A stretch of 63,991 nucleotides of DNA, filler included, from Stramenopiles sp. TOSAG23-2 (lineage: Eukaryota), in assembly GCA_900128395.1 (NCBI GenBank). It is 3 parts of 3 records of this genome, joined end to end, with 100 filler letters (N's around TTAATTAATTAA, not from the genome) between each part and the next. Parts side by side here need not be neighbours in the genome. Positions count along the whole stretch, not along the records: positions 1 to 21,914 come from LT649523.1; 2 more parts are not named here. The stretch is one strand, 5' to 3'. Shown in pieces: positions 1 through 37,857 of this stretch. The notes beneath the pieces are model-generated. The model saw nothing but the letters and a program-made list of their open reading frames with translations, had not been told where the DNA came from and did not search any database. Position 1 is the first letter of the stretch; each line of letters starts with the position of its first letter. Made by a program: the position numbers and the translations under genes.

Positions 1-1
1 A

Positions 2-3000
2 TGTCCTTTTGATATCAAGGCCTGGGCAAAAGGGGCAGCGGCTATCAAGGAGGGATCCAATGAAGCGTTAAATATTTATAATTCATTTTCAACTAATATT
101 GTCGTTATAGACAAAAATTTTGCCAAGGAAAGAATAAAGGCAATAGGTTTACCACCAGATGCGTTTGTCCAAATTTGCCTTCAACTAGCTTTTTACAGAA
201 TGCATAATTATGTGGCACCAACTTACGAGACGGGAAGCACACGACAATTTTTCCACGGTCGAACGGAGACAATTCGCAGCTGTACGAGGGAGGTCAAAGA
301 TTTTTGTGAAGCAATGGATCAGTTTACTGCTAACGAAAGGGGTAATGCTATTACAGATATTGTGTTAAAAAAATTTGAGCAGGCATTGTCTGCGCATGTT
401 GATTTAACAGTTGACGCAATGTCTGGAAGGGGAATTGACCGTCACTTGCTTGTCCTACAGTTACTAGCCAGTGAAATCGGCCTTGAACATGACTTATTTA
501 CAAACGCATCATTTTTAAAGTCAAAATCATATAGTTTAAGCACGTCAAACATATCTTCCAGTGGTTGGAATGCTAAAGATAATGAATGGGCAGTTGGTTA
601 CTTCCCAGCAATGATTGATGGATATGGTTGTGCTTACACAATTAGTCCATCATGTATTAAGATAATGGTATCGTCATTTACTGCATCCAAAGAAACTGAT
701 ATATCTAAGTTTGAAGATCAAATTGTAAAAGCAGCTAGTGGGTTATTTGAACTAGGAAAACTACTCCTGTCCAAGAATATTGGTGCCAGCACTAGTAACA
801 ACTCGGGGCAACAAGATCATAATAATAAGAAAAATCCCCTTGAAACGCAGATTACAAACTTATGGCGAAAGGTATTAAAAGTAAAGCCAAGTGAACCAGC
901 ACCTCAAAATTTTTTCGAAGCAGGCGGCGATTCCCTATCTGCAGTTGCATTGCTCCAAACATTAAAAAACTTTTCGGGGTCAACTATTTCATTAACCGCG
1001 TTTTACGGTAAACCTTCTTTGCAATTTTTATTAAGGACAGTCAGGCCAAAAAAGGGAACAAACTTGAAAATTTTTGGCAACAAAGAAACACTGGATAAAT
1101 TATATGAAGGAGTAAATGATGCTCCTCTATCTCATACTGCGCGTGATATTGCGTGGGGGTGTTATACAAATGAACAAGGTAAGCAGGTTGTATATATATA
1201 TGCATTTAAATACACACACTGTAAAGTTGTAAACGTATATATCCTATTTGCGTACATATAATGATGACTAACAAAGACCACATTTACTAGATGCCTCGGA
1301 ATTCAAAAATACTTACAGAAATGCAATTCGCGGTGACGTATGGACTGCGGAAAATTTACATGCGTACATTGAAAGCCTTATTAAAAGATTTCCTGCTCTT
1401 CGCTCAACTGTTTGGTTTAAGGCGAGTGTACCACATGCAAAAATTTATCCAAATGATAATACTTTGGCCTATGACATTGCTCACAGGGCAGTGTTAGAAG
1501 TTGATACCACTGATGGTAAGAAAATCACACCCAGAAAAATCGTTGAATTAACAAAACAAATGATACATGTTATCGACGCAGATAAGGATACATATACTCC
1601 ATTTGCGTTGTGCGTTTTACGCCCGGAAGATATACAATACGAAGGTGGTGATGAGCCACCACCAGTAAATATAGGTGAAAACTACTTTTGGCTTTACATG
1701 TGTACGCATCACGCTATTTTCGACCATACAGGTATACAACATTTCGTACGTGATCTATGCGAAAGCTCAGAAGAATTTAATTTAGGTGGAATTGCAAAGT
1801 CTATCACCCTTTCACAATTGCATGAGTTATCAAGAAATGATTCTGCAAGAGATAGTGATGAAAGTGCAAAAGAATTTTGGAGGAAAGAATACCGTGGATT
1901 TGTGGCCGATCAAACAAAGGGCATTTTTGATGGTCGCCGCATGGAAAGCGAAGGAAGCAGTGGCAAACCGGGAATTACCAAAGCGTTGTCTATTTCGTTG
2001 GATGGTTTAAAAGCGGTATGTAAACGTAATTCATCTTCGATTTTTACTGGTTTAATTGTTGCGACACAGACTGCTCTGGCTCGCCTAGGTGGAGCAGAAA
2101 GTTATACTATTCAGATCCCAGTCTCAATACGGCATGTACTAAGTAGTGTTACAAGCGATAATAAGTACGGTATTTATAGTGCTTTGAACGTTATACCATT
2201 CAAATGTTTAGCAACAGACGCATTGGACGGGTCTCTTGAACGACGTCTAATGGCAGTGAATTTGAAATGGCAAGCATACATGACGAATTTAGCTTTTTCG
2301 TCCTCTACAATTGTTGATATTTTAAGAATCAATGGTCAGATTGATGAAGCTGCTGCCTTGGTTCGATGTCGCCGTGACGTACTTTTAGTCCTAGCGCCAA
2401 CTGAATCCTTAAGGCATCCATTAGTTATACCAGGAACGAATCATTTAGTTTTTCCAACTCCATCGGCTTCAATGGGGATGTCACTTGTGTCAAGCATATT
2501 CACAGGGGTAGACGGCAAAGAATATCTCAAGCTGCATGCTGAATACGATGGCAATAAGGTATCTTTGGGTTTAGCAGAGACTACTATTGAGGCTATGAAA
2601 TCAATCTTAATTGCTTTTGACGCAGCAGAGAATAAGGGAGAATCGATTAATTTATATCGAAATTCGATACCTACAGATATGATTTTTACAACAACTCAAC
2701 AACGTTTATCGCGGTTATCACTACAGTATACTTCAGATAAAAACTTTCTAGAAGAAGCAAACAACCTTTACCAGTATGGAGAATCTATGTACAGCCTCGT
2801 CTGTAATTCCGAAGACAGTGTTAACATTGCATTGATTGAGGCTGTGGACGGAGATAAGGCTGGTTTAGGAAAAGGAAAAGGAATAGAGACAACTTACAGA
2901 GCATTGTTGTCGAAAGTTTTTGCCTTATCTCAGAAATTGAAAGAACTGTTTCCCAGGTCTAATACTGGAGAAATGCAAGTGGTGGTGTTAGATCTTTCTG

Positions 3001-6000
3001 ATACCATGTATCTGTATATCGCTATGCTTGCAGTGTCGCATGCGGGATTTACATTTGTTCCGGCGGACAGAAAGTGGGTAAAAAGCAATGTTGAACATGT
3101 AAGAAATACACTAAGTGATTCTATTGTTGCTGTGATTAAATTGCAAAATCAAGAGGCCAGAGATTTTGGAACAACAAATGTATTATCTATCGATCATATT
3201 GTTGATGGAATCACAAATGTAGACGACTCTGATAATACATGTGCGTATATTGTGGAACCCGATGATATTGCGTATATTTTATTTACATCTGGATCAACAG
3301 GTACTCCAAAAGCATGTAGAATTACCAATTTTAACATTGTTAGTATGATTCGATCACAGCAAATGTATGTTTACAAGCCGTGCAAAGATGACATTATTTT
3401 ACACTTGTGCTCCCCTCTCTTTGATGCTTTTTTGGAAGAGACATTTTTGGCACTAGCCCAGGGTGGAACTCTCGTTCTCCCGGCTTCAGAAGAGGAACGA
3501 ATAAGTGCATCTGGGATTAGGAGGCTAATATCTACGCATGATGTAACAATAATATCAACAGTACCCGCAATACTAGACCTTTTGACGCCTGATGACGTTA
3601 AAGGATTGAACTTAATTATATCTGGGGGAGATGTATTACGACAAGCTACTGTAAATATTCTTATGGGAAGCAGCGATTCTTTGCGTATCATAAATACGTA
3701 TGGCCCAACAGAGACCACAATAGTAGCTACGTATGCAGAATGCATAAAAGGGGTAACGCCTTCTATAGGAAAGCCTTTTCCAGGAGTTGGTGTTGCACTT
3801 GTCAACCAGAAATATGGTCATCCTTGTAAAAATTTCGAAGTAGGAGAGATTGTAATTAGGGGGATTGGCTTAACACCAGGGTATGTATTGGCGAAGGAAA
3901 ATAGTGGATTTAGAAGTTGCCAAGGAGCTCCCGCTTATTGGACCGGAGATTTGGCATGGCGAGACAGAAAGGGTGATATTTGGTTTTGTGGTCGAGCTGA
4001 TCGCCAATTAAAAATTAATGGGGTACGATTTGATCTCTCAGAAATTGACCATGTTTGCATGGCTGTACCAGGCTTGCAAGAAGTTCGAACCATTGCAGTA
4101 AAAAACAAAGGTGGTAAAGATACTGCTAAGTTAGTGACATTCGTGGTGCCCGCAAGTTGCAGGCCCTTTTGTGAAAGTATGTTCGTAAAACAGTTACCTT
4201 ACTTCAAACGCCCTGTTTTAGTGGTTGGGGTAAATATATTACCAAGAAATAAAACGCAAACTAAAGTAGATGTCAAAGCTTTGACTCAAATGGCCAAGAA
4301 ATTAATTTCAAATATAAAGGAAAAAGATTTGGAACCACAACCCAGAAATGAAAGCGGCGCCAAGATGTTCCAAAAATTGATGACAGAACCGGTTGCATTG
4401 TTGTTAAATGCACTGAACATTGTTCTCGGGACAACATTTTCTGAATCAATTCTTGAAAAAACTTTTTTGTCTCTTGGGGGAGACTCGTTAAAAGGCGCAC
4501 AATTGTCGGAGGGGTTGAAAAAATACGGATTAAAGTGTAAATTAGAGTTGTTGATGTCTCACACACCCCTTTCTGGCATTTTAGAGAATTCTTCGAGCAA
4601 TAGTTCTGTTACATTTAACCTAAAAGACGAGAAATACACATCGACTGATGCATTTCAAACAGGAAAAGCATCTCCGCTACAAAGAAGTATGTGGTATCTA
4701 GAAAAGTTAGGAGACACTTCCTATGTAATATCGGAAATTTTTAATTTAGAATCAATTAATGCGCAAAACAAGTTAAGTATTGACAAAATTAAAATAGCAT
4801 GGAATTGCGTTGTCGAACGTCATGTTTTATTGACAGCCACTTTTCTTGAAAAACTTGATTCGAAAACAAATCAACCTATTTTGTATTGGGATGCAGTGAG
4901 TGGCAGAGTAACAAATACCGAAAGAAATTGGTTTAATGTTGTCAAAATGAAACCAGGAACAACGGAAGATGCTATTCTCTCTAAAGTTAACTCTATAGTA
5001 AATTGTAATTTGAAAATGACTAATGATGCCTTGTTTCGGATAAATTTAATTGTATTAGAAGACGAACAGAAAAAAATAGAAGTCAGCAAAATGGTGGTTA
5101 CTGTTCATCATGCCATTTTTGATGGCGCTTCGTTTGATGTGCTGTATAAAGATTTTAGCTTCTATTACGCCGCGTCTGGATCACAATCAAACTTGAATAC
5201 TCTATTGCCACCTTTAAATGTACAATTTGGCAAATGGTGTCTTGAGACCCAGAGATTTGAGAATTCAAAAGAATTCAAAGATTGTCTTGATTGGTGGGAC
5301 AAAAATTTAGAAGATTCGTTTTCAAATTTGGGGTTGCCATATGAAGATACAAAAGTTAACAACGCCAAAAATGTTCAGGCTCCGGCAAGAGATGTTGTTT
5401 ATAAAGTTGGCTCAAAGCTATCAGAGCGATTTAAAGTCGCAGTTCAAAAGCTTGAAACAACAACATTTGGTCTTCTTTATGCTATATTTGCTTCGGTGTT
5501 ACACCGCATTGGAGATGTTACTGATATAGTTATAGGTACACCTGTAAGTGTTCGTAACGACGATGGTACATATGGACTATGTGGGCCATTCATAAATACA
5601 ATACCATTACGGGTCCAACTTGACAGTGAAAGGGATACTTTTTTTGATTTGGTAAAAAAGTGTCTTAGTACTACTATCCGAGGCACCCTCCACTCTGCAA
5701 CGCCTTACGCAGACATTCTAAGAAAAACAATGGTGATGTCAAAAAGTGTATCATTATTTGATATACTTTTTTCCATCGATTATCAAAGTGAAAATTTAAA
5801 ACTCGACCAGCAATGTCCAGAACAAATAACGGTGAATAGGACACTATATTCAAATAGATCGATGACTGTTTTTATTAATATGCACAAGGATGATATTGCT
5901 GTTAGGGTAGTCTATTCAAAATGCGTAGGTTTTGGGCTTGCAAATGCTATTGCCTCTCAAACCGGATTTCTTATTGGCGAAGTGGTAAAGAATATTGGTG

Positions 6001-9000
6001 GACTTCGTAATACACTTGTTGCTGAGTTGCCACTTCACGACGACGCGTCAGAGTATTGGAACTGGAGAGAGAAAGCAAATCCAGTTGTACCCCTAACACC
6101 TGCGAAAGATGCTTCCTTAATTATGATGTTCCACAATACTGTCATGAGAACGCCAAATGCATATGCAGTCTTATCAGAGGAAAAATGCTTGACTTATCAA
6201 GAAGTGTGGGATGCGGTAGAAACGGTAGCTCTCGCTATAATCAGTTCCATGAATTCAGATTTAAAAGAAGAGGATCACTTTGTTCCCGTTTTGATCAAGA
6301 AAGGCTGGAGACAAACCATCGCAATACTTGCCATTTTGAGGGCTGACTGTGTTTTTGTGGTACTTGATACAAAAAGCCCTTTGACACGCAATGCTACTGT
6401 TATGAATCATTGCGAGGCCATTGCAGTATTGACATGTAACAAGCACGAAAAAAATATTCCTGGTGGATTTAACGTTATTCTTATGGATAATTTGGACCTC
6501 CTAAAAAATACGGCAGAATTTGAAAATAAATTGAAATGGCCCCCTGCTCGCGACGGCGACAGTTTGGCATACGTTTTATATACGTCTGGATCTACTGGCG
6601 TTCCAAAGGGGTGTATGATTACCCATAGTGGAGTATTAAATACAGTAAAAGACATAAATAAAAGATTTCAAGCTACGGCAGACGATAGAACTCTCTCAAT
6701 TTCAAAGCTAGGTTTTGATTTATCCATGTACGATACCTTCGGTATTTGGGAAATCGGTGGGGCCATTATTTATCCCAAAGAATTTAGTAGACTGGGATGG
6801 CTCGAAGCTGGAAAAAAATTTCAGGCAACACTTTGGAACACTGTGCCTGCCCTGATGGGTATCATGTTGGATGATCAAACTTTTGGAGCAAGTGAAACAA
6901 TTAGTTGTGCTGATGTTCCGTTAAAAGCCGCAATTTTAAGTGGTGATTGGATACCTTTATCAACGCCAGATAAAATTTTCAATATATGGCCAGATATATA
7001 TTTAACATCGGGCGGGGGAGCTACAGAAGCTTCTATTTGGAGTATATTGTATCCTATTCCATCAAACAAAACGTTGCGGGAAAAATGGAGGTCTGTACCA
7101 TATGGAATTCCGATGTCACACCAGCACTTTTATGTGCTCGATCCAAGTTTCAAACCATGTCCAGCTTACGTTACTGGGGAACTTTATATAGCTGGCGATG
7201 GCGTAGCAAAGGGTTACTTGCGGGATGAACGAAGTGCAAAGGCATTTTTCCCACATCCAGAGACTGGGGAATGGATTTATAAGACTGGGGATAAGGGGCG
7301 TTTTGTTAGCGACGGTTATTATTTTGAATTTCTAGGGCGCATAAAAAATAATGAACAGGTAAAAATTAACGGACTAAGAATAGAGTTGGGGGCAATAGAA
7401 AATATTCTAGAAATGCATGGGTTGGTGAAAAAGGCGGCATGCATAGTAGCCGGTGCTGAAGCGTCAAAAAGGTCACTTCACGCGTATGTTACATTGAAAT
7501 TAAAAAACGATGAAATAAACGAGACAACGGGCTCTGATTTTGCTCAGAGCTTGATCGATCACGTTTCCAAACACGAACAAGCTTATCTTGTGCCTCGTAT
7601 AATTCACATAATAGACAGTATGCCATTATCAGGAAATGGCAAGGTTTTGAAAAACGCTTTATCAAAATGTCCAGTAGTGTATTTGCATGAACGCAAGTCA
7701 AAAAAGGGAGGGAAAATGAATGCGAAACACACGCAAATGATTTCCCTGTGGACATCAGCGATTGGAAAAGAGATTGACGAGGAAGAAGAAAATCTTCATT
7801 CTGGGATGGATTTTTTTTCTGACTTTGGTGGCACTTCGTTGCAGGCAATGTCACTTGTTACACGGTTAAAAATAGTGTACTCAGTAGAAGATATTTCGGT
7901 CATTGATCTTTTTGATTACAGTACTCTTGAAAAGTTAGTCGAGTTCCTTGAATCGAAAGGAGCAGTATTTAAGGGTGAAACTGCATTGATTCAATCCGAC
8001 GAAACATTAACACCGATGTCAAACAATAGCCTATTTTTGAAATTAGGAATGTTCTCAGCTGCAGATCCATTTCAAAGTTGGTTATGGAATGAATCAAAAA
8101 GTTTAGCTATGATTGGGGGTGACGATAACCCAGCCCAGTATAATTGCGTGCGCATATTTAAGATTTCACCAAAAATAAAATTGCTTCCGATGACAGTTGC
8201 TGCAACAGCCGTTGCAAGTCGCCATGAAGTTTTACGAAGTAACTTTAAAGTATCAGATAAAAGCAATCAGTTGCAACGAGTCATAGTTTCAAGTATTGAT
8301 TCTGACGAAAACATTGTTTCCTATTCGATATCAAAAACAACAAAAGCAGCACTGACATGGATCGCTAATGTTACGGGTCAACACTTCACATCACGTACTA
8401 GTCTATTTAAAGTTCTGGTAAGCGACTTCATTCAAAATGGTGAAAACGAGGGGAACACCAATTTCAGTATTGCTGCGGTTGTAACGCACCATGCCATTGT
8501 GGACGACGAAGCATTTGGCATTATTTTCAAAGATTTACAAAAAGCTTATACATCAGCGCTTGCAGACGTTGACTTTGAATCCGTATTTAATTCCCTTCCC
8601 TCCAGCGTTCTTCCTTCTACAGTGTACGACTGGCTAGATAACATCTATTTAAATGGGAAAGAAGCACAGGAACTTGATTATTGGGGTAGGAAATTGTTAA
8701 AAGCGCCAACTCACGTTGATTTACCATACGCTTACCCTGTAGAAACTGACACCGATACTTTGGGGGGAGCTGTAGACCGTAAAGCTGAATCAAGTGTACT
8801 ATCATCAGTCGATGAAATTTGCGCTAAATACCAGGTTTCAAGAGCGGTTGTCTTACTAGCATCGTTTGCCATGACCATTTCGCGCCACACTGGGTGCAAC
8901 GATTTATTGATTGCCTTGCCTATATCTTTAAGAAAAGGCAAATCGTTTGAAAGGTATGTTGGCAATTTAATTAACGTTGCAATTGTCAGAATGACCACTC

Positions 9001-12000
9001 ACGATACAATGTCGGTTGGGCAATTTTTAATGTATACCAGAAAAACGTTGAGCGAAGCTATTGAGAATTCTATGGTTCCGTTCAATAAAGTTATGCAACA
9101 TTTAAAAACCACGAAAATATGGCGTGGGCAAGGTCGTTCAAATAGGGACAATCCTCTTAGAATAATGTTTAGCTACGTCACATCTGATGTTGAGGCTCAA
9201 AACGAAGGTAGCAAAGGGGTAAGCAACGAGAGCTGGGGTAGGCAAGAAGAAATATTTTTACCAGCAGAGACTTCAAAGTATGATTTATCACTTTTCGCCA
9301 CACTCCAAACGAACGGCAATAAGAGTCACGACGAAACGCTTCGTTGGAGCCTTGACTACCGTGCTAAGTGTTTTTCTAATTTTCAATGTAGAAGAATGCT
9401 TGATTTATACGAGTACACTGTCAATTTATTTGTATCGTTACCAAGTAACCGACTGATTGAATCTGTTGATTTGTTGGGAAATATTGGCGATAACACAGTG
9501 TGTAAAGTCAGTAATTTAATTGAAAGTTTGAGTACACAAACGGTACAAGTAACCTGTCCACTGTCATCGGAATTAAAAGCTTCAAATTGTACCAGTATTG
9601 GCGACTTAATATTCACAGCATTTAAAACTCGCTCTAATCCAAATGTGCTACGAGAAAATCGAGGATTCAAAGGAAATGGGGGTTCGGGTGATTTTGTTTT
9701 GAATACAGAAGAATTTGTGAACGCCGTTGGTCATGTTTCAACAGCACTAAGTGAAGCAGGTGTAACAAAGTCGTCTGTAGTAGCTGTTGAAATCGGAAGA
9801 AGTATGGCTCTAATCATTGTTATGTTGGCAACATGGAAATGCGGTGGTGTGTTTATGCCTATAGGAAATAAGTCAGGAAAAACATTTCGAGATCGTGCAT
9901 GTTCCACTGCCGGGGTTTCTGTAATTATATCAGAAAGCACTGTTAATGAGCGTTGGGGCGCGGCGTTGAATCTACCAGGTATATATGTGCCAAAAATTTT
10001 CATAACTGTTAGGCCTACGGCAAATATTGTACAAACTATTATTAATGAAGATACTGCGTATATATTGTTTACCTCCGGTTCAACTGGGAAACCTAAGGGA
10101 ATAGCAGTATCCCACAGTAATATAATAAACTATGCACTGACATCATGTGATTTGTATTGCAATGAGGGTATTAACAACAATAAAACTGTACCGCTGCTTG
10201 GAGAACCAACTTTTGATGCCACGTTTACCAGTATGATAGTTCCATTATTAGCAGACTGTACAACACATATAGTTCCACCTTCGATAAATGGTTTAGGCCT
10301 TTTCCTAGAAAATAGTTTGCTTAGTAATGAGTGGGTATTTGCAAAGTTGACTCCGGGCCAACTTCGTCATGCTATTGCTGCTGCAAAACCTTCGTCAAGT
10401 GTAATGTCTAAATTGCTAGTACTTGGAGGAGAAGCATTAAAACTAGACGATGTAACATCTTTGGGAAACCTTGAAAATGCGCAAGACATCATAATTTATA
10501 ATGAATATGGACCTACTGAAGCTACTGTGGCCTGTGCGGCCTTCCGGGCATCCGTGGGTGAAATAATTGCGAAATGGGGTAATTCTATTTCTAAGACTGT
10601 TCCATTTGGACGCAGTATTGCTGGGGCTGGGTTGCTTGTTTTGGACCATAAATTCCACCGCGTTCCAGAAGGTTGTTCCGGTGAATTGTTTGTTCGCGGC
10701 CCGTGTCTTTCTCAGGGTTACATTGGGGCCATCGCGGAAAAAGATAAACATAGATTTATTACCTTGAAAGACGGGCAGCAATACTATCGCACCGGTGATT
10801 TGGTACGCTGGACTGTGTCATTGGAAGAGAACAAAGGAAACGGCGATAGTAGTAATCCCTACGAACTGACAATAAACAACAGTCAATTGGAATTTATTTC
10901 TCGGGTTCACACGGATATTAAAATTCGCGGTATGAGGGTCAACAAGGAAGCTGTTGCCGCGCTTTTAAAATCACAACCAGGTGTTGTTTCTTGTACCGTT
11001 TTTGCTCCGTCGGATATCTATTTCATTGCTGCTTGTTATCTAAAGGATGATTTTAAGACGCACCGGGAATTAGAAAGTATGGAAAAAGAGTTTAAAATTA
11101 TTTGCCAATCTTCATTGCCATCGTGGATGGTACCTAGAGTGCGGGTTTTGTCGGGAACAGCGCCTTTAACTAAACATGGAAAAGTTGACGTGAAAGCTAT
11201 AAAAAGTCTTTTGAAGGATAGATTGGATGACATGGAATCAGAACTAGATGATGTCGATAGCTTGAAGAAAATCCAATCCTTGCTTCTGGATCTATGGAAA
11301 CGAGTGCTTAAACTAGAAAAAGTGGATTCAAGTGATGATTGGTACAGCCTAGGAGGGAACTCAATCCAGTTTGCTCAGCTCCAATTTCTGGGGAAAAAAC
11401 AAGGTTTAAAATTAAGCAGCAATGATATAGATTTGGGTATGTCACTAAACGAGATGGCAATTACTCTTCACAAATTTGAAAATCGACAGAAACAACTTCC
11501 AGATATTCGATCAAGTGTCAAACGAGCCTCTAGATTAAGTATGAATAGTTTTAACTTAAACTCATTGGGTGTGGACACTCTTAATGATGAATTTCCCCTC
11601 TCGCCAATTCAGCGTTGGTTTGTCGCAAAAGATTATGCGAAAGGGGCTAATAAAAATGTATTTACCCAAGACTTCGTGATTGATTGTCACCCATCTTTTT
11701 TTGCAACAGATTCAGAAATCGAACCCTTTGCCGCAGTAAAGAAGGCATTAAATACACTAGTAATGCAACACAAAAATTTGCGGGCACGGTTTAATTTATC
11801 TAACCCTACTAATCAAAATAAGTCTGTTTGCGAAATTTTGCCATATGACGACGATGTATATACAATTAAACATGTTACTCTTGACATTACTGGAAATAAA
11901 TCTGTAACCGAAACGGAAGCTCGGAAGTGTATATACCGCGAGAAAAATAAGTGGCATCAGTACATAGCTTTAGACGTAACCACTGGTCCTGTTTTTGCTG

Positions 12001-14606
12001 GTGTACTGTTGTCTATAAATAATTTTCATTTTTTGATCCTTGTAGCACATCACATGGTTGTTGATTGGGTATCATGGTACTTTGTGAAGGATAGTTTTTT
12101 AGAATATTTAAACTTGGTTTTAAATGACAAAGAACTTCCTTTATCCATCGAAGATGAAATTGATGAAATAGAATCAGACAATAATAATTATGCAACGTAT
12201 TGCAATATTATAAATAGTGATTACATTGTGGAAAAAGCGTTAAAGAATGCATGGCATTGGAAAACAGCAATAAATGCTGGTGTAGTGAATAATAATAATA
12301 TTATCTCTAGAATGAAAAATAAATGTTACAGTGGACAAGGGGTTGATTTCAAACCAGCGCGCTGCAAATTAACGCTTCCATTGCGAGAAACAAACTGGAT
12401 CTACAAATATTTAGAGAGAAACACGGAAAACAAGTTGAACAGTATGATGACGATAGAAAATTTGATTATAGTGGCAATGTATATTGTCGAGATAAAGGAG
12501 AAAAATGTTAGCTCTAATTCGAACACATCCAAGTCTAGTAACAATGGTTTATACCTCATGTTAGAGCATAATGGTCGAAAAAGCAAAGTCAAAGGTATTG
12601 ATACCAGTGGTGTTATTGGTTGGTTTACCACACGTTATCCGATATTTATGGGTACCGATGATGAACTAGTTAACGGCCAAGTCACATTAAAAGTAATTGA
12701 GAAAACATTGGAGATATTGAAATCATGCAAGTCAAAAACTCCGTTGGCAGAAATGGAATACAGCATTTTGGCAGATTATAGTAACGAAATGGACAGTGCA
12801 AGATCGTTAGGGGTGAGGGGGAAAGAACCTTTGGTCACTTTGAATTATTTAGGTAATGTTGATTCAGATATGAATTTGGACGTATCCACTGGTATCGATC
12901 TTGTATTTGATCGCGGAAGCCAAAAATGCATGGATTTTCTGGCATGGTCCGTTGTGGGCGGCCCTTTGACGTTTGAAGTACTTTATAGCAATAACTTTTA
13001 CGACAGCGAATCGATTAAAAACTCTTTTAGCGATTTTATCAACACACTAAGTACCATGTGTCGCTTATTAGTGAATGTACCGGACAGTGTAGCCACATTT
13101 CAAGATCCATTATTCAGGGAATCAAAGGTTGAATATATTATGCCTACATCACCACTGCAACACAAGTGGTTATTGCAATCTCATTTTGACTCGGTTTATA
13201 TAAAGGAGAACATAAAGTTACATCATTTACAAAACATTTATGAATTAAAGGCTGCCGATACGCCAAGTGTTGTTTTAGATAATTTGAAATCTGGATGGTA
13301 CGAAGCAACAAAAATATTTCCAATACTTCGCACACATGCAGTTATACACCCAACCAATCCAGGGATGTCAATTTTACGTATTTTAAAAGCTGAATATTTT
13401 TCAATATTTTCAAAATGGACTTTATTGGTTGATGGCAACACAAGTTTGAAGGATGTTCTGAATCAACAAAGGCAGGAGCAGTTTACAATCGACAAAGGGC
13501 CTCCATGGCGGTTTACGCTTGTGAAAGATATAAAGTCAGCAAAACTTTACCTAATTATTGAAATGCACCACGCACTACTAGATGCGGCTATGCGAAGAAT
13601 TATTTGGCCAACGGTACTACGTCACATGAAAGTTCCATGGGAAACCGAAAACATATTCTCTAAAAGTGTTACAGGAGACCAATCATTGGTTCATCTTACT
13701 TGTATAAATATAGAGAGGAAAACTGATAAATTGAAAGAAATCGAACGCTATGTTAATTCCGTTGAAACCACATTATTGGAAAGTAGCAACAGTTGCATTG
13801 TTAGAATGAGCAACTTCTTGCGAATGCCGGAGGGCCTAAGCAATAGAGTTCATTTTGTAGAAAAAGATGGAGCATCTCATGCATCTTTTATTGTGGAAAG
13901 TAAAGTTATTGAAAAATTAAAAGCATTTGCACGAACTTCGAAAGTATCTATGAGTGATGTTTTTCACGGTATCTATGGTGCTACACTTTTAAGACTTGGG
14001 ATAACAACAGGAATGTCTGAAGGTTCACCAAGATTGAGAATTGGTGCACGTAGACGAGGATTGACTGTCGAAGAATTTGATAAAATACTTGAAACAAAAT
14101 TTCGAGTTACTGGATTTTGCACTTACGTCTCATGTAGGCACAATAATTCCCTTCAAGAAAGTTCAAAAATGGCGTGGCCGTTAATATCAAATTGCCCGGT
14201 ACTTGTTGGTGCAATGGAAGAGGAAACATCTTTGATTGATATATGTAAAAGTATTTGTAATCAACGCCATGCCAGGAGACAATATGAATTCAATATGCAC
14301 CCAGGCATGTCCAGTATACTAGAGACACTTGGTAGGGATTCATGCGCAATGGTATACAATGAAAACGAAACTTCACTGTTAAGTGAAAGGGAAACAATAA
14401 GTATTAACAATTCAAATGGAGACAGTCCATTTTTTGAGATGAAACTGGTCGATTCGATTGAACCTGTTTCATATAGATTCTTGTTGAATATAAATCTATG
14501 TAAAGATTGTTGTGAAATTGCGGTACAATATAATAAAAACAACGACAAATGTGGAAGTGCAATGATTATAAAAGAAATTTACGAAATCTTATGCAATGAT
14601 TTATAA
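2..14606 (+). CDS. Multimodular NRPS, 5'-incomplete: carnitine/choline O-acyltransferase-T-C-A-T-C-A-T-C-A-T-E-C. Exons 2..1178 and 1291..14606, >4830 aa
   Basis: The frame is open from nt 2 and contains acyltransferase motifs PDAFVQICLQLAFYR, TYETGSTRQFFHGRTETIRS, GIDRHLL, LSTSN and GYGCAY. Four carrier-domain serines: GGDS (932), GGDS (4485), GGTS (7836), GGNS (11361). C-domain cores: HHAIFD (1707), HHAIFDG (5106), HHAIVD (8487), HHALLD (13566). Three A-domain TSGSTGxPK motifs at about 3273, 6570 and 10059. E-domain motifs PIQRWF, HHMVVDWVSW (12048), GWFTTRYP and NYLG. Splicing the 1179-1290 intron joins the 353-aa and 4380-aa ORFs in frame. Confidence 0.93.
1179..1290 (+). other. Spliceosomal intron (112 nt, phase 1) inside the first condensation domain of the NRPS
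   Basis: Donor CAAG|GTAAGC, branch point TGACTAAC at 1265-1272, acceptor TTTACTAG|AT. Splicing joins the C1 motif APLSHTARDIAW to the C2-like motif LIKRFPALRST and continues into the 4380-aa frame. Confidence 0.9.
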
Positions 14607-15632
14607 AATGGGGATTTCGAAGGGGATTGAATTCTTTACAACTTTTTTATTTAAAAAAAATACGAGTATAAATTTGAAAGAGGATGATTATAGATTAATT
14701 ACGGTAAATATATATCTTTACGTGTAATCGCAGTTCTGATGCTCCAGATACTAATCAAAAGACCACCACTGGCAAGTCATCACCTGGCATTAATATTGAA
14801 TTCGCCGATTACTGACTCTGATGCGAGTCATATTCATTGCACTTTAAACTGTATATGCAAGAAGGATCATGATATACTCTACCACGGCACGATGTATCAC
14901 ACACCTTTGAACAATACATGGTTTTCAATTGATGCATATAATGCGTTAATTGCATCTATTTACCTCCACCAATGTTTTTATATCTTAAAAATATTGGCAC
15001 ACTCTGTGGATTTCAATGAACTCTATCGCAATGTTACGATTCATTGTCCATCTTTCAGTTTAGTGAGATAGATTTGTCTCAGTTATTGTATTCTTTCTGG
15101 AGAGTAGGAATTATCATGAGTAAATTAAAAAATAAGTTATGCATTAATTAAATTATATATCTTTACTACCAACCAGACTTTAATTCTCCTTTTTTATTCA
15201 AGATATACTACGTCGTATATATCACGCACCCTCTTTCTTCCCCTGAACTGTCACCAACCACCAACCTACACAAACATATGATCATGTAATGCGCATTTTT
15301 CATCAAGATGGAAGGTTGATACCATCTATTTTATATGATACCTCATCGGTAATTCCTGTAGACGTATGGGATTTATTGTCACTCATTGTGAGATAGATAT
15401 TAATAACATTGATGTTTAAAATAGATATTAATATTGGTTCAGTCACTGTATTCTTTTGAGAGTAAGAATTGTCAATGATGGGTAGAAATAAAAAATTAAA
15501 ATACAAAATACGCGGTACTCGTACATTATTTTTATACTTCGTATTATATATAAATTATACGACCCCTCGTATTTAAATATACGCATTTAATTAGAATTCT
15601 TCTTTTCTTTCTCTCTCTCCCTGCTACTTTCT

Positions 15633-18600
15633 TTATACACTTTGTTGTACGGCATGCATCGTTTTGTATCTTCCATTTTCACGAGTCATCAATTCCTTAT
15701 GATTTCCACGTTCCATAATTTCGCCTTGATGCATCACAATGATTTCATTATAGTTTGCAATTGTACTTAATCGATGAGCAACTGCAATTGTTATACAAGA
15801 CTTTCCTAATCGATTAAATGCTTCGACAATAATCCTTTCCCCTTTAGGATCCAATGCCGACGTTGCTTCGTCCAACAAAAGAAGTTTTGGTTTTGTTAAA
15901 AACAGACGAGCAATAGCAATCCTTTGCTGTTGCCCACCAGATAATTTACTACCCTTTTTACCTACCGCTTTCGAATCATCTATACCAATTAATGTGCCAT
16001 TCGGCTTACCCGTTGGAAGCGTAAAGTCCAAGTTTACAAAATCACTTGCATTTGACATATTAATAGAATGTTTAAATTTTTCTTCCGAAACTAAACGCTT
16101 ACGACCACCCCAGAAGAAGTCGCCGTCTTCAATTCCATATGTAACATTTTCGTATATCGATCTAGAAAAAATAACTGGTTTTTGCGTTACGCAGCCAACA
16201 GATTTGTAGTACTCATCTAATGGCAATGTACTAATATCCTTCCCGTTGATCATTATTTTACCACGATTCAACTCATAATTTGTCTTTGTCTTTAGCTCAT
16301 ATTGACGCAAAAGCAAACATAGAATTGTACTTTTCCCAGAACCAGACGCGCCAATGAGAGCGATTTTCTCTCCAGTGACAGCAGAGAAAGTAACGCCTTT
16401 TAGTACTTGTCGGGTTGATTTTGGATATGAAAAGAAGACATTTTTACATTCAATTTTAGTATCATCACTTTTTCCATTTTTTTTTTCTTCTTCATCATCA
16501 ACAGCAATACTACTACGCTTAACTGCAATTGTCTTTAATTGATATTTTATTTGTTTCTTATTACATAAAACATTGTATACTCGACACGCTATTCGTTCAA
16601 CTGATATAATTTTCGGCCCTGTATCAGCCATTAAAATAAAATTATTACATATAACCTGTTTTGTGTGCAATATTATGTCGAATATTTGTATACTATGTTA
16701 GCATATATTTCGCATTATAAAAATAAATAAAGATAGTAGATGAAGAGAAACATACGAACGAAGCAAATGCATATACTGTTAATTGACCAGGCTTCAATTC
16801 GCCTATACTTTCAACATACCCTGCATATGCCATTCCTACACATGCAGTTGCCATCATAACATGTATTTGCATTGAAGTACAAAATGTAGAAATTAGAGCC
16901 ATCATGTTTCCAATATTTACATGTTTGCGTATAACTTCCATAGATTTTTTTTTTTCGTCTTCTTGTCGTCGAAATAAAAAGACTGTTTCCAGGAAGTCAA
17001 TTATCTCGCCAGTGTATGAACCAAGTTCATCTTGCACAGCGTTATATTTTACAGTGTATGTCTGCAATAATTTAAATTGGATACGATTCCACACCAACGT
17101 AACTGAAACTAAGAATAGAAGCATTATACTAAGTCTTACATTGATCATAAAGACTAACACCAAACCGGAGATCACTTCTGTCAGTGGGGTAAATGAATTT
17201 GTTATTTCTTGTAGCCCTGGCCTTGTTACCAATTCACATTCTTCAGTAATACATCTCCGCATTTTCGCTGTGTCCGTCTCTTCTAACTCTTGTAAAGTCG
17301 AATTCAGATAAGAATTAAAAATTTTGGTCCTTAACTCGAAAGAGTACAAAACTAAACCTCTCCCGAACATCGCCTTTTCAGTAAACATGCACAATCCTTT
17401 CATAGCAATAAAACCAATATAAATAAGGGCGTTTTCAAGTTGGCCCCCTTTACCTGTAAAGTCTGTTCCTTGTACATTTCCGTTAACTAATTTCGATAAA
17501 TAACTCAATGAAATTATTTGTATAACACCTTCAAGAATTGAAAATAATACACCTACAAACATATACTTGTAAAATCCAAATGAATGTTGGGGTACAACAT
17601 TTCCAAAAAAAGATGGCCATTTCTCAATCTGCACCTCCATATTGCCGCTGGTTTCTGAGGATAATGTAGATTCATTAATAAGACAAAACACTTCTTCTAA
17701 CGTGTTTTCATCAAATTCAAAATTTCCAACCTGCATATTAAACAAGGGCGTCCATAACCATAAAATGATTAAAAAATTCACTGTGACCAAAGCAGCAGTA
17801 ATCCATGGATAAGTATTTTTTTCTTCCATCCCAACAAATGCAAATAATTTTGAAACATTAAACCCAAAACGTATCAAGTAAAACAGACGAACAAAACCTG
17901 GCACTCGCCTGCTAGTAGAGGTCGATATTTCGATAACTAAAATTGAAGATATAATGCAAGGGGCCATCAACCAATTTAGCTCACTGCATCTTTCACAACC
18001 CTGGAATTCCACAACAGTACTTGCAATGATCAAAAGCGTAAGATCAACCGTTAACAAAATAAATTTTAATATTTTATGACATGTTTTATTTTTATAATTG
18101 CAAGCAGTATTTACATCGCTACTATCATATATATTATCAAAATGTATTGTTAAATGCTTTTTAACATCAAGCGTCGATGGCAAAAAATACAAGCGTCTGC
18201 CCGTAATAACCAACCAAAATAATACAAATATCAACAGTGTTATTTGGTTGCCTGCTGAAAAATACGCCATTGAATCCAATGCGTGTTTCCTTTCAAATAG
18301 CGATGATATCCCCCCACCGGGGTTGTGAACGATATCAACTACGAGTCCTATCAAAATAGTCATCGCAAGAAATGATATCAGTGGCTTCAAAGTTTTTGTA
18401 GTAATTTTTTTGTGTGTATTCTGTTCATGCGCAATTTTGATATGTTTCATCACTGCATCTGATAAAATTGGTGTCAAACTTGAATCATAGCCAAAGTGCA
18501 CGCCATCAAGGGGTGCATTTATCCTGCTACTATGACCGCTAGTTCTCCTCCTCCCGTCAATATTGTCTTCACGATCATTAGCCCCAAGAGTAGATGGGAA

Positions 18601-18684
18601 AACCCTTGATTCTTGCGATTCCCTGCTGAATGACGACAACAACGGTATGCTTATAGAGTCGAACCTGCTTGAACGAAAAGACAT
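15633..18684 (-). CDS. ABCB-type half ABC transporter (N-terminal extra TM region + TMD + NBD). Exons 18684..16756 and 16655..15633, about 983 aa
   Basis: Walker A GASGSGKST, Q-loop VTQKPVIF, signature LSGGQQQRIAIAR, Walker B LLLDEATSALD and H-switch VAHRLSTI. The upstream ORF supplies the TM helices. The 100-nt intron 16755..16656 (GTATGT...GCTAAC...AACAG) is phase 0 and fuses the two ORFs in frame (YAFASF|VICNNF). Confidence 0.9.
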
Positions 18685-18865
18685 TTCACTACTATGCGTG
18701 CCTCAACAACTACGTCTACCATGACTATAGTCCTTTTTATTTCAATTAAATATTAGTCTATCTAGATCTATTAATATGTGTGTGTAGTAGTATATAGTAG
18801 TATTTAGTAATTATAAATCGACGAAAAAGTAGAGAGGATCCCCTCGACGAAAAAGCAGCCACTCG

Positions 18866-19037
18866 TACATAAGGAAAAATATCTGAAATCCGTCATACTT
18901 TTTTTTATATATATTAAGTATATATATTTGTACACTAATAGTTCTACCAAATAAAATAGGAATACTAGTATACAAATATACATACTTAATATATTTTTAA
19001 AAAAGTATTACGGATTCCAGAAATTTTTCCTTATGTA
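18866..19037. mobile_element. MITE-like foldback element (about 80-bp imperfect inverted arms) flanked by TA
   Basis: TA|CATAAGGAAAAATATCTGAAATCCGTCATAC... pairs with ...GTATTACGGATTCCAGAAATTTTTCCTTATG|TA. The arms are complementary along almost their whole length, and the flanking TA fits a Tc1/mariner-type target duplication. Confidence 0.65.
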
Positions 19038-19391
19038 AGAACTGTGAGCAGCATCATCAGCATGTTTTCTTCTTCGATCGACACCAAATTATTAAATCCA
19101 AATTACTGTGGGATGACGGTAAATATGGTCATTCAATATTAATATTTATCGCTTGCAAAAGCTTCACAATTCCAAATTTACGGGAAAAACCAGATTTGAA
19201 TAAATAAATCTATATATTACTTATTTTTTAATTTTATTTTGTTTTAATAATCCTGTGCTCTGCACATTTCAAGAGAATCGGTGTCGCATATAGTTTAAGT
19301 TTTGGAGAACATTATATCTGTAAAAGTAAAGCCTGGAAAGGTGATTGGTTTTTGTATTTACGTAATTGATACACATTCAACTCAACTAACA

Positions 19392-21053
19392 ATGGGAAAA
19401 GAACCGGATGAGGAGGAAATAGTAAAGTTTAGTTGGAGCACGGCGAAACCATGCATAGGTGTAATTGTGTATTTCTTCGTTGCTAACGTTGTGTACAGTG
19501 TAATCTTGGCCTGTGCGTTAACGTTACGAGTATTGTATGCAGCAAAAAGTAGTAATTGCTTGGACAAAGGCGCGGCAAATGATACATGGATGTCAAATAC
19601 TTCCTGGCCTTTCTCGATCATGCTTCTATGGGCTCCTTTTTTAGATGGGTACTCTTTATTTGGGTGGAAAAAGTACCATCGCCGTTGTTACATGTGCGTA
19701 TCTATGATTGTGATATCAATTTTGTTGGTGGTATTGTCTATATTGTACAAGTCCGCTTTATCAATAGATGGAAAATGCCCGAACGGAGCATTGACATTTT
19801 CCATAGTTTTGCCTTTATATTTTGTTAGTACAGTTTTTATGATCAATCTTCAAGGTTATGGAATACTTATGTTGCAAGGACCGAATATCTTTCTTGTAGC
19901 AATTATACAAACGGCAGGGAACATTATTGGTAACTCTGCCGGTCAAGCTGGTATTATATTTTTTCGGCAATATATCGAAATCAGTGTTATTTTCCTTTTC
20001 TTAGCAGGTTGTGCATTGGTACTAGCATTTATTGCTGCAACGCAATTGGAGGAAAAAATTCCGGAGGATAAGGAATTGCAATCCCCAATAGAATCTTACA
20101 AGCAATTACTTTTAATGATATTAAATAAAAGGGTGCTTGTTCTGCTCTTGCTTATTTTCACTTTCAATTGTGGAACTGGTGGTATTATCGGCAACACAAT
20201 CGCGTTGAATAATAGAGGAATATCGCCTACAAACCAAGGGTTGAACCCTTTGGTAACGTTTATACCAAGTATTTTATCGGTTTACATAAGTGGGGTTGTT
20301 GCCTCTAAATCTAAACCACTTCAAAAATTTACATATTTATTTCCATTTTATATTGTAGGGATGATGGCATATTTTTCGATGAGATTTCTTGCCCCGTATG
20401 TACAAGGGAGTAAATGTGATGTTCATGGGCATGTATGTAAGTCACGGCATGATTGGGTTGTAACAATGTATTACGTAGTCGATTGTATACAGATTTTGTT
20501 TGGGCGCCCTGCAGTAACATTGGTGTTTACCCATGCAAACCAAGTTACTCCGACCTCAATGGCAGGGACATTTTCCTCTGCTGTTCAAGCAGCTTATTCT
20601 ACAGGGACAACTGCACCAGCTGCGGTGGCAAATCAACTTTTTATAGCTGCAATGAATAAAAATATCCAATGCAATGCTAATTCGGATTATTATGGTCCTG
20701 AGGTGTTTACAAATTCAACGACAGGCGAAACGACCCGTTTTTGCGGCACGTTTTCTTGCAAATCAAATATTATCAACAACACTGTACTGAGAAAAAAAGA
20801 AACCGGGTTTTGCAACCCGTTGGGCGATGGTTATAATATTGTTTCAATGATAACGCTTCTTCTTTGTGTATTGTTTTGGATTATATATACATTTTTGTGC
20901 AAAAAATTTTTGGATGTAGAGAAGGAAAAATATGATCCTAAAAACGGAAATGAATCGCTTTTGGGGGCTAAAAAAGCGTCAGATGTAGTAGAACCAAGAT
21001 ATTCTTCATTGGACGATGGAGATGATGACTCCGGGTCATATCATGCTATATAA
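19392..21053 (+). CDS. MFS permease of the acetyl-CoA transporter AT-1 (SLC33A1)/AmpG-like family
   Basis: About 12 hydrophobic helices. SWPFSIMLLWAPFLDG matches the family motif SWPFSLKLLWAPxxD; AGTFSS lies in the late TM region. The first ATG is at 19392 (the ORF track starts at an upstream TTG). Confidence 0.8.
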   Translation: MGKEPDEEEIVKFSWSTAKPCIGVIVYFFVANVVYSVILACALTLRVLYAAKSSNCLDKGAANDTWMSNTSWPFSIMLLWAPFLDGYSLFGWKKYHRRCYMCVSMIVISILLVVLSILYKSALSIDGKCPNGALTFSIVLPLYFVSTVFMINLQGYGILMLQGPNIFLVAIIQTAGNIIGNSAGQAGIIFFRQYIEISVIFLFLAGCALVLAFIAATQLEEKIPEDKELQSPIESYKQLLLMILNKRVLVLLLLIFTFNCGTGGIIGNTIALNNRGISPTNQGLNPLVTFIPSILSVYISGVVASKSKPLQKFTYLFPFYIVGMMAYFSMRFLAPYVQGSKCDVHGHVCKSRHDWVVTMYYVVDCIQILFGRPAVTLVFTHANQVTPTSMAGTFSSAVQAAYSTGTTAPAAVANQLFIAAMNKNIQCNANSDYYGPEVFTNSTTGETTRFCGTFSCKSNIINNTVLRKKETGFCNPLGDGYNIVSMITLLLCVLFWIIYTFLCKKFLDVEKEKYDPKNGNESLLGAKKASDVVEPRYSSLDDGDDDSGSYHAI

Positions 21054-21212
21054 CTCTCACAAGCTACTTTAGGAAATATTAATACTCCTCAACCCTCAGG
21101 TTTTTTTAATTATAAATTATCTGAAAAATGGAAAAGTTGGAATGAATGTAAGGATCTTGAAACCGAAAAAGCACAACAAAAATATATTGATATTGTGAAT
21201 AGTTTTATTTAA
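21054..21212 (+). pseudogene. Acyl-CoA-binding protein (ACBP) C-terminal fragment, in frame behind the MFS stop codon
   Basis: Translates as LSQATLGNINTPQPSGFFNYKLSEKWKSWNECKDLETEKAQQKYIDIVNSFI*, matching the ACBP pattern KQATxGxxNxxxPGxFxxxxxxKWxxWxxxKxxxxExAxxxYIxxV. It has no ATG and lacks the N-terminal helix. It is too short for the ORF track. Confidence 0.75.
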
Positions 21213-21253
21213 TAAAAAAAAATATAGATAAAAAAGGTTATATTTTTTTTTAT
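21212..21253. terminator. Perfect 15-bp AT-rich hairpin between two convergent stop codons
   Basis: ATAAAAAAAAATATA (21212-21226), a 12-nt loop, then TATATTTTTTTTTAT (21239-21253). It touches the stop codons of both flanking fragments. Confidence 0.5.
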
Positions 21254-21384
21254 AAGTAATGTTTTCTACCTCCTTTTAAGACGTATTTGCCACCACGTGG
21301 GCCCTTATATACTTTTTGTGATTTCTTTTTAGATGGTGATTTCTTCTTTCTATTTCCACCTTTCTGGATCTTGAGCAAAAATTT
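21250..21384 (-). pseudogene. Lys-rich fragment ending in a GPRGG basic domain (PBCV basic adaptor-like)
   Basis: Translates as KFLLKIQKGGNRKKKSPSKKKSQKVYKGPRGGKYVLKGGRKHYL*. It has no start codon and is bounded upstream by an in-frame TAG at 21385-21387. Confidence 0.6.
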
Positions 21385-21914
21385 CTAACATTTTCGTTCG
21401 GTCCATTGCATTGAAGGATTAAAAACAAATAATACATTAACGACATTGGGCCTAGATAATAATAATATTACTGATTTTATATGCTACATCTAACGGGGTA
21501 TCACCAATTGTATTCACAAATCGTATCTCCATAATCTAATTGATTATCGGCATGGAAGGGACGATAATAGCAGTATATGGATTGTAAATTAATTAATATA
21601 TATATTTATATACTACCAACTACAATACCCCTATCCATTTATGTTACCGATCTCTTCAATCTCAATCTAAATCATCCTCCTCGTAAATCAGACATGAAAT
21701 ATGAAATTCCACTTTCAAGTATAAATTATGTAAGTCATTTGATAGGCAGAATCGAAAAATGTCCAATGTCCGGCGCATATACATGATTGAAAAATGAATG
21801 AAAATCTACTAAAATGTGTTATTTAAATAAAATAATATTGAAGCAAGCTGACAACTGACGACTACGGGGAAAAGAAGAAGATTACAGAGATATTCTTCGT
21901 TGTGACATACAGTT

Positions 21915-37757: not shown

Positions 37758-37857
37758 GTCAACCGTACATAATTTCTTAATACTTAAACTTTTTCAATAA
37801 TATTATTACTAATTGATATTACACATCCAGGATCACCAATGAGTATACCGTTAAGTA

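Follow-up and report, generated by a model that had tools for sequence, protein, structure and literature searches.

We analyzed a 63,991-nt stretch of DNA (the window) from Stramenopiles sp. TOSAG23-2, an uncultured marine protist with a eukaryotic assembly of 32.8 Mb in 9,146 contigs (GCA_900128395.1). The window consists of several contigs joined by N linkers, and its positions 1–21,914 are the entire contig C1317 (LT649523.1), which carries three genes, for a nonribosomal peptide synthetase (NRPS), an ABCB half-transporter and a major facilitator superfamily (MFS) transporter, together with one remnant of an acyl-CoA-binding protein (ACBP). We are highly confident that the NRPS is real and unusual; it starts, as far as the contig reaches, with a carnitine acyltransferase (cAT) domain and a carrier domain placed ahead of the amino acid modules. 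Both neighbors are remodeled host-type paralogues that bear the codon signature of the NRPS, and the arrangement suggests three genes working together. We put slightly below even the chance that they form a small accessory module for biosynthesis that is native to the protist, combining a bacterial-type NRPS body with host-type parts.

The stretch is matched in seawater metagenomes and in poly-A RNA runs, of which we examined four of the 24 listed runs overall and two of the six for RNA. Of the 30 bins of positions 1–20,000, 29 are covered in one independent DNA run and all 30 in another, with listed pieces that are nearly identical to the contig; the three genes therefore occur in natural samples with hardly any change. 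The first bin, 1–667, has a depth of 0 in run X2 and 0.15 in run X3, where uncovered parts are no evidence of absence. The NRPS, ABCB and MFS genes and the ACBP remnant are all part of the protist genome.

The NRPS gene lies on the plus strand with its 5′ end missing (exons <2–1178 and 1291–14606) and encodes 4,830 aa with the domain order cAT-T0-C1-A1-T1-C2-A2-T2-C3-A3-T3-E-C5, where C, A, T and E denote condensation, adenylation, carrier and epimerization domains. The exons flank a predicted 112-nt spliceosomal-type intron (1179–1290, plus strand) with a GT donor, a branch site and an AG acceptor, removal of which joins the first frame to a 4,444-codon frame without a stop and places T0 in frame with C1. 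Five HHxxxD motifs, three A3/A7 motifs, four GG(D/T/N)S motifs and, in each of the three A domains, the lysine at code position 517 are intact, and the gene reads as a multimodular NRPS with C-A-T modules, intact core motifs and carrier serines. Class profiles built from 110 fetched long NRPS proteins score C2 and C3 as ordinary LCL-like domains and the fourth condensation-family domain (C4) as the E domain (109.7 bits), which spans approximately 11560–12990 on the plus strand and carries HHMVVD, LEHNGR, GWFTT and LNYLG motifs. The same profiles detected no cyclization (Cy) domain among the condensation-family domains, with C2 (HHAIFDG) scoring 169.5 as LCL-like versus 39.8 as Cy. The terminal C5 domain (approximately 13100–14606, plus strand) contains an HHALLD motif, and Pfam found no thioesterase (TE) or reductase after it. 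All four condensation-domain matches of the assembly are located on C1317. In the collections searched, the best identities of individual domains are 22–44%, and of the nearest proteins that carry a name almost all come from bacteria; among the best 120 of 851 matches to the NRPS (21–31% identity) none had PF00755, and when C2-A2-T2 was compared with 1.84 billion representatives, the best 150 matches were at 25–39% with no cAT match among them. Other carrier-domain enzymes of the genome, labeled from their translations, are an A-T-reductase (C810), a protein resembling fatty acyl-AMP ligase (FAAL) joined to a T domain (C644), and an A-T-membrane protein of poly-amino-acid synthetase type (C705).

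The A-domain specificity codes allow a product to be predicted. A1 (2820–4310, plus strand) has the lysine-like code DAESIGTIVK, agreeing with the bacitracin Lys code DAESIGSV at six of eight positions (PMC3207962), and A3 (9540–11180, plus strand) has the asparagine-like code DATKVGEVAK, agreeing at nine of ten positions with DATKVGEVGK, predicted as Asn (PMC3547906). A2 (6120–7640, plus strand; DLYNISGIWK) belongs to the cysteine clade, is nearest to Cys-activating domains such as those of bacillamide BmdB and dihydroaeruginoic acid synthetase, and agrees at eight of ten positions with each of the Cys-type code DLYNLSLIWK and the Ala-accepting code DLYNLSGVWK (PMC12283262). At code position 322 it has Gly, where all 20 of the nearest A domains have Leu or Met, and it would select either Cys or Ala/a small aliphatic residue. 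Taken together, the codes predict an acyl-Lys-(Cys/Ala)-D-Asn product.

Positions 38–727 (plus strand) encode the C-terminal part of the cAT (positions 357–573 of Pfam PF00755), including the TET motif, the GIDRHL arginine and the STS motif, and T0 (848–1030, plus strand; GGDS serine) lies in one open frame with it. A second contig, C338, overlaps the window start by 11 nt and holds Pfam positions 115–327 with the catalytic His motif, and this overlap and the complementary Pfam ranges argue for joining the two; the assembly yielded neither model positions 1–114 nor any sequence ahead of them. Positions 1–47 of C338 are an inverted copy of window positions 325–371, as is characteristic of amplification chimeras. 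In the cAT, TET and Arg stand at the places of VDN and Asn in choline acetyltransferase, and we take these two features to be carnitine determinants, as we presume the roles of the other residues. It is 28–37% identical to five other cATs of the genome, with no starred placement in a tree and no sister among those genomic copies, and a search with cAT-T0, confined to proteins of 686–2,000 aa, returned 82 matches of which none had a carrier domain. One further contig, C2274, contains a housekeeping-type carnitine acyltransferase in pieces across frames with one stop, which may reflect an intron, a sequence error or a pseudogene.

Carnitine acyltransferases have one site for a pantetheine thiol and one for an alcohol. 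In fungi, cAT domains move acyl groups from an acyl carrier protein (ACP) to an alcohol, and that of Tv6-931 also moves them back onto the ACP (PMC10901484). Together these two points would place T0 in the CoA site and make the donor an acylcarnitine-like ester, which appears likelier than acyl-CoA because the cAT keeps carnitine-type residues. The only full-length ketosynthase (KS) domain of the genome is stand-alone, and a segment of tandem ACPs with a ketoreductase (KR) on C694 (1–1832) resembles a PfaA-type polyunsaturated fatty acid (PUFA) synthase.

The ABCB gene (15633–18684, minus strand; exons 18684–16756 and 16655–15633) encodes a 983-aa half-transporter with one ABC_membrane domain and one ATPase domain in a single mRNA, and its Walker A/B, Q-loop, signature and H-loop motifs are intact. 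Splicing of its 100-nt GT-AG intron (16656–16755, minus strand) is seen in one contig from RNA run X11. The protein has an N-terminal extension of ~370 aa, in which five helices are predicted ahead of the ABC membrane domain; TAPL/ABCB9- and ABCB6/HMT1-type ABCBs likewise have N-terminal extensions with extra helices. Its PDB neighbors are eukaryotic ABCBs, and it shares with P-glycoprotein halves and ABCB10 an ABC_membrane domain and an intact ATPase domain, but its membrane domain is only 20–22% identical to the two half-transporters found elsewhere in the genome, and no orthologue was found. In metagenome contigs, a collection from which own-genome records may be left out, none of 55 pattern matches to the membrane part was confirmed.

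The MFS gene (19392–21053, plus strand) encodes a 553-aa divergent homologue of SLC33A1/AT-1, which matches PDB SLC33A1 with an E value of 1.7e-8 and has Acatn clusters as its best Atlas matches (0.99). An earlier note on this DNA had called it AT-1/AmpG-like, and the homology to SLC33A1 stands; the closer identification does not, as Pfam Acatn gives no match at E≤1 and the AT-1 orthologue of the genome is a gene on C656 (Acatn 275.7 bits; E 2.9e-100 to SLC33A1) to which the MFS is 24% identical. AmpG structures are matched by that orthologue and not by the MFS, which by its sequence is a member of the SLC33/AmpG family in the wide sense and not the SLC33A1/AT-1 orthologue. The nearest relative is an own-genome paralogue on C6026 (26% identity by BLAST), which passes Acatn and has cysteine-containing loops in common with the MFS. 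Together with three loci from other assemblies, the C6026 gene represents a Cys-loop SLC33-like subfamily that is distinct from the AT-1 orthologue and occurs in at least two protist species: L096 and L097 come from a 45%-GC species, and L098, 98.9% identical to C6026, comes from another assembly of the TOSAG23-2 species. At L098 the subfamily gene is followed by six ORFs, none reading as an NRPS, and its upstream side is cut off.

Compared with SLC33A1/AT-1 (PDB 9mun, 9m0s) and AmpG/RhtX/FptX, the MFS of C1317 is homologous and keeps the WPFS..LWAP..D segment, but it differs in belonging with the Cys-loop subfamily and in being alone among the compared kin in lacking the Lys of SLKLLWAP and both Asp residues of QDIAVDG. 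In a printed alignment its residues corresponding to human N229, Y390 and Y418 are retained (residues from PMC11982209), and the equivalents of Y225, D328, N457 and N461 are changed, that of Y225 in the housekeeping copy too. Human SLC33A1 carries acetyl-CoA from the cytosol into the ER lumen (PMC11982209) and exports GSSG, a cysteine peptide, through an overlapping site (PMC12889552), and a peptide substrate is therefore within the reach of the family. Among 8,000 candidates scored in an orthologue search, the single match was the MFS itself. Its 90% protein cluster has one member versus 19–65 for five ordinary genes of the genome, in a collection from which 8 of 14 own-genome sequences asked were absent as exact sequences, and this fits a rare or weakly expressed gene. 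A single-sequence structure model was unusable (pLDDT 43).

ORF and Pfam analysis bears out the layout that the earlier note had described, in which the plus-strand NRPS converges on the minus-strand ABCB (gap of 1,026 bp) and the ABCB diverges from the MFS (707 bp), all on one contig. The synthetase is thus physically adjacent to its candidate accessory genes, and these lie outside ordinary housekeeping groups, contrary to what that note had named as grounds for abandoning its cluster: neither is a housekeeping orthologue, with the AT-1 orthologue on C656 and the ABCB paralogues at 20–22% identity. As a background we used 40 unselected 10-kb stretches of the genome, counting predicted helices in ORFs of at least 200 aa. 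Six or more helices occur in 5 of 150 background ORFs and in both members of 0 of 110 adjacent pairs, while the ABCB and the MFS each have seven in the same count; the naive chance of two such polytopic neighbors is ~0.001, reckoned after the fact. The GC content at third codon positions (GC3) is 0.319 for the NRPS, 0.301 for the ABCB and 0.342 for the MFS against a background median of 0.228, and 5, 10 and 3 of 103 background ORFs, respectively, are as high. No adjacent background pair (0/63) has both members at 0.30 or above, and the correlation of GC3 between adjacent genes is weak (r 0.12). The paralogues are all lower: the 24 best paralogue loci yield 18 other ABC ORFs, none of which reaches 0.301, the two other AT-1-like genes are at 0.195 and 0.212, and the five other cATs are at 0.203–0.224. 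A first codon model had placed three background frames above the ABCB, two of them non-genes (a frame over a repeat and an antisense frame), and the count given here was redone on the unselected sample. Such a shared codon bias shows a shared history or regime, not a shared function. Pieces of the NRPS 3′ part and of the ABCB are present in both RNA runs examined, which are oligo-dT or poly-A libraries, as contigs from which expression cannot be ranked.

From the gene anatomy, the intact motifs and the splicing of the ABCB intron, all of which are observed, we infer a route in five steps. The cAT would take an acyl group from an acylcarnitine-like O-ester and load it onto the T0 phosphopantetheine, itself seated in the CoA site. 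C1 would acylate Lys, C2 and C3 would add Cys (or Ala/a small aliphatic residue) and Asn, and the E domain would yield D-Asn. For release, C5 would transfer the chain to an amine or close it into a ring, and the resulting N-acyl-Lys-Cys/Ala-D-Asn lipopeptide would be pumped by an ABCB homodimer from the cytosol into a vesicle or outside. The remodeled SLC33-like MFS would carry the peptide or a derivative, not acetyl-CoA, across an endomembrane or back in, and the ACBP stretch would be a relic of rearrangement. Our guess is that the product serves chemical defense or prey handling, with metal binding through the thiol in second place. A host-assembled lipopeptide cluster of this kind is plausible, at about even chances, and we lean slightly toward the two transporters serving the NRPS, counting the metallophore variant discussed below.

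Several observations weigh against such a cluster. The NRPS intron, and with it the join of cAT-T0 to C1, is predicted only, with no RNA cover of positions 1–5,336 in either run, and some domain types score weakly (C1, 48 versus 27 bits in favor of the N-terminal type; C5, 40 versus 41). The contig carries only three genes and its left flank lies outside it, which limits the earlier observation that no housekeeping gene intervenes, although no further ORF of at least 300 aa was found between NRPS, ABCB and MFS. The supposed divergent promoter region of ~700 bp does measure 707 bp between the first ATGs, but this length is ordinary, with 11 of 35 background head-to-head pairs at or below it, and 178 bp of it are a mobile-looking, MITE-like palindromic repeat (18863–19040; 84-nt arms, 86% complementary) with copies on five other contigs. 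GC3 rises with gene length (rho 0.41), and among length-matched ORFs 1 of 11, 3 of 24 and 1 of 41 are as high as the NRPS, ABCB and MFS, respectively; three of the five polytopic background ORFs are also among the top-GC3 genes. The RNA runs were found by a query over the NRPS 3′ part and the ABCB, and their co-presence is not co-regulation. No MFS transcript was seen in the 5′ 609 bp over which RNA was examined, neither library having cover over 19,344–20,000 (the 5′ third of the MFS), a gap that, like the one over 1–5,336, carries no evidential weight, and the MFS may have lost its conserved residues through decay. Finally, the searches found no orthologue of the NRPS, ABCB or MFS, and hence no synteny.

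Repeats and a gene remnant surround the genes. The convergent gap holds a dispersed ~360-bp repeat (14804–15165) that recurs on 32 further contigs when 40 of 936 candidates are scored, is up to 98% identical to these copies over ~355 bp and is abundant in DNA and RNA runs; Rfam gave no match in 14,500–21,914, including both repeat families. Directly behind the MFS stop, the ACBP remnant (21054–21212, plus strand) spans Pfam positions 32–76 of 76 with no in-frame start, and falls short of a full four-helix domain in a translated frame. In all likelihood it is a relic, and there are five other ACBP matches in the genome. A splice from MFS to ACBP was considered by eye and set aside, as the N-terminal ACBP part would still be missing. 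The right end of the contig (21580–21914, plus strand; 335 bp) begins at a short dispersed repeat and matches at 96% a stretch just upstream of TAF10 on C6159. Left of the switch point, C6159 and C834 have 1.27 kb of other non-coding sequence, and both contigs end early; the right end may reflect an allele that lacks the block, one that carries an insertion, or a misjoin. C6159 and C834 are two diverged versions (82–91%) of the TAF10 upstream region, the former with several 70–195-bp tandem duplications.

These features bear first on the alternative that the NRPS is real and the transporters are unrelated neighbors in a fast-evolving, repeat-rich accessory patch, where the shared GC3 would come from the region or from low expression and the MFS may be in decay. 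The ordinary spacer, the repeats in both gaps, the broken ACBP and the repeat at the right junction all fit this alternative, as does the sister MFS subfamily standing among non-NRPS genes at L098, and the ABC ATPase matches on ~50 contigs of the genome include candidates that could export the product instead. The rarity of two polytopic neighbors, the weak GC3 correlation of adjacent genes, the lower GC3 of every family-matched paralogue, and an ABCB that is intact and spliced argue the other way, and we regard unrelated neighbors as unlikely while giving them appreciable weight.

Synthesis, ABCB export and MFS re-uptake of a metal complex would instead make a siderophore or metallophore system, as the earlier note had proposed from the kinship of AT-1 with the permeases RhtX/FptX. 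Acyl-Lys and Asn/Asp are usual chelator precursors, and the Cys-activating relatives of A2 include bacillamide and dihydroaeruginoic acid synthetases. However, the MFS scores only 23 bits on the RhtX/FptX model (TIGR02718; cut-off 356 bits) versus 45.2 for the C6026 paralogue and 84.6 for the housekeeping AT-1, and by this measure it has no special affinity to RhtX/FptX. No thiazoline would be formed because the NRPS has no Cy domain, and no hydroxylase or oxygenase lies on the contig; tailoring enzymes elsewhere in the genome (lysine hydroxylases, phosphopantetheinyl transferases) were not searched. Siderophore uptake is thus left without specific support, and we consider this alternative improbable.

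An acyl-supply system, in which the cAT would receive acyl-CoA by way of an AT-1-like permease and ACBP, draws on the presence of a cAT, an SLC33A1 homologue and an ACBP match on one contig, read earlier as a threefold acyl-CoA theme, and on the retained equivalents of N229, Y390 and Y418. That theme comes apart on inspection: the ACBP lacks the first 31 model positions and a start, the MFS has lost two family motifs and has changed residues at the equivalents of Y225, D328, N457 and N461, and the cAT is of carnitine type, with a single thiol site that T0 must fill. In addition, SLC33A1 exports acetyl-CoA from the cytosol (PMC11982209), away from a presumably cytosolic NRPS, and we find acyl supply quite improbable. 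Least probable of all is an assembly artefact in which an amplification chimera or contaminant joined the genes, suggested by the fragmented assembly, the inverted 47 nt of C338, the different sequence upstream of TAF10 on two other contigs, and the lack of a piece bridging two genes among the listed contigs of independent runs (1,010 further pieces not shown), and opposed by the cover in two independent DNA runs, the spliceosomal introns and host repeats, a host paralogue as the nearest relative of the MFS, and a cAT that is only 28–37% identical to the five other cATs and has the GC3 of the NRPS.

If the three genes do form a lipopeptide cluster, it departs from known systems in recognizable ways. 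Bacterial lipopeptide NRPSs likewise place an acyl starter, supplied by FAAL-ACP or a starter C domain, on a carrier and have C-A-T modules, codes of the same type and an E domain; the protist NRPS differs in having a cAT for the FAAL, 22–44% domain identity, a spliceosomal intron and an E-C end without a TE. The ACV synthetase of penicillin and cephalosporin clusters similarly has three modules, a middle Cys (here possible) and an epimerized third residue, but the protist enzyme has an acyl-loading unit, Lys- and Asn-like codes and a terminal C rather than a TE, with no isopenicillin N synthase on the contig. Hang et al. (2017) are said to have reported a fungal polyketide synthase of the highly reducing type (HR-PKS) with a carnitine acyltransferase domain. 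Such enzymes with a C-terminal cAT (Trichoderma virens Tv6-931, Aspergillus luteorubrus LtbA; PMC10901484) share with the protist NRPS a cAT beside a phosphopantetheine carrier in a megasynthase, and the ltb cluster also has an MFS transporter; in the fungal enzymes the cAT comes after the ACP and sets the polyketide free or recaptures it, whereas the protist cAT precedes the carrier and the NRPS, in what would be a loading position.

According to PMC8582187, the cAT is known only in fungal HR-PKSs, although PMC2613160 mentions without detail NRPS/PKS proteins with cAT and C-methyltransferase domains, which may be a prior sighting; a PKS-NRPS hybrid is reported in a haptophyte (PMC4580454). 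At the level of titles and the beginnings of abstracts, the literature yielded no cAT-primed NRPS, no NRPS cluster in a heterotrophic protist and no acetyl-CoA transporter in an NRPS cluster, in a library without most subscription papers; the locus could be listed in gene tables that accompany protist genomes. By word search, the term NRPS is absent from two MAST genome papers (PMC8163842, PMC12614181).

On another contig of the window, a 4,101-codon frame (25488–37793, minus strand) encodes a multi-pass membrane part, a PH domain, DUF3492, a GT4 glycosyltransferase and a C-terminal RhoGEF, and reads as an unusual fusion between a polysaccharide synthase and a signaling module. We take its DUF3492 and GT4 portion to be PelF-like.

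In its fullest form, the cluster reading holds that a marine heterotrophic flagellate built its own lipopeptide cluster from a bacterial-type trimodular NRPS and a eukaryotic cAT primed from the acylcarnitine pool, with two duplicated host transporters recruited and remodeled and the block present in only part of the population; we offer it tentatively, as doubtful in its entirety. Heterotrophic marine flagellates have no known record as producers of specialized metabolites, and an NRPS that is colinear, complete in its motifs and predictable in its product makes metabolite production by them directly testable. Gene clustering by recruitment of host paralogues is familiar from fungi and plants, and if the transporters belong here, it would occur in phagotrophic protists as well, and an SLC33 protein would gain a peptide-metabolite substrate. 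The cAT loading unit, if true, would be a new way of starting lipopeptide assembly lines, with a chemistry not found in the parts of the literature searched.

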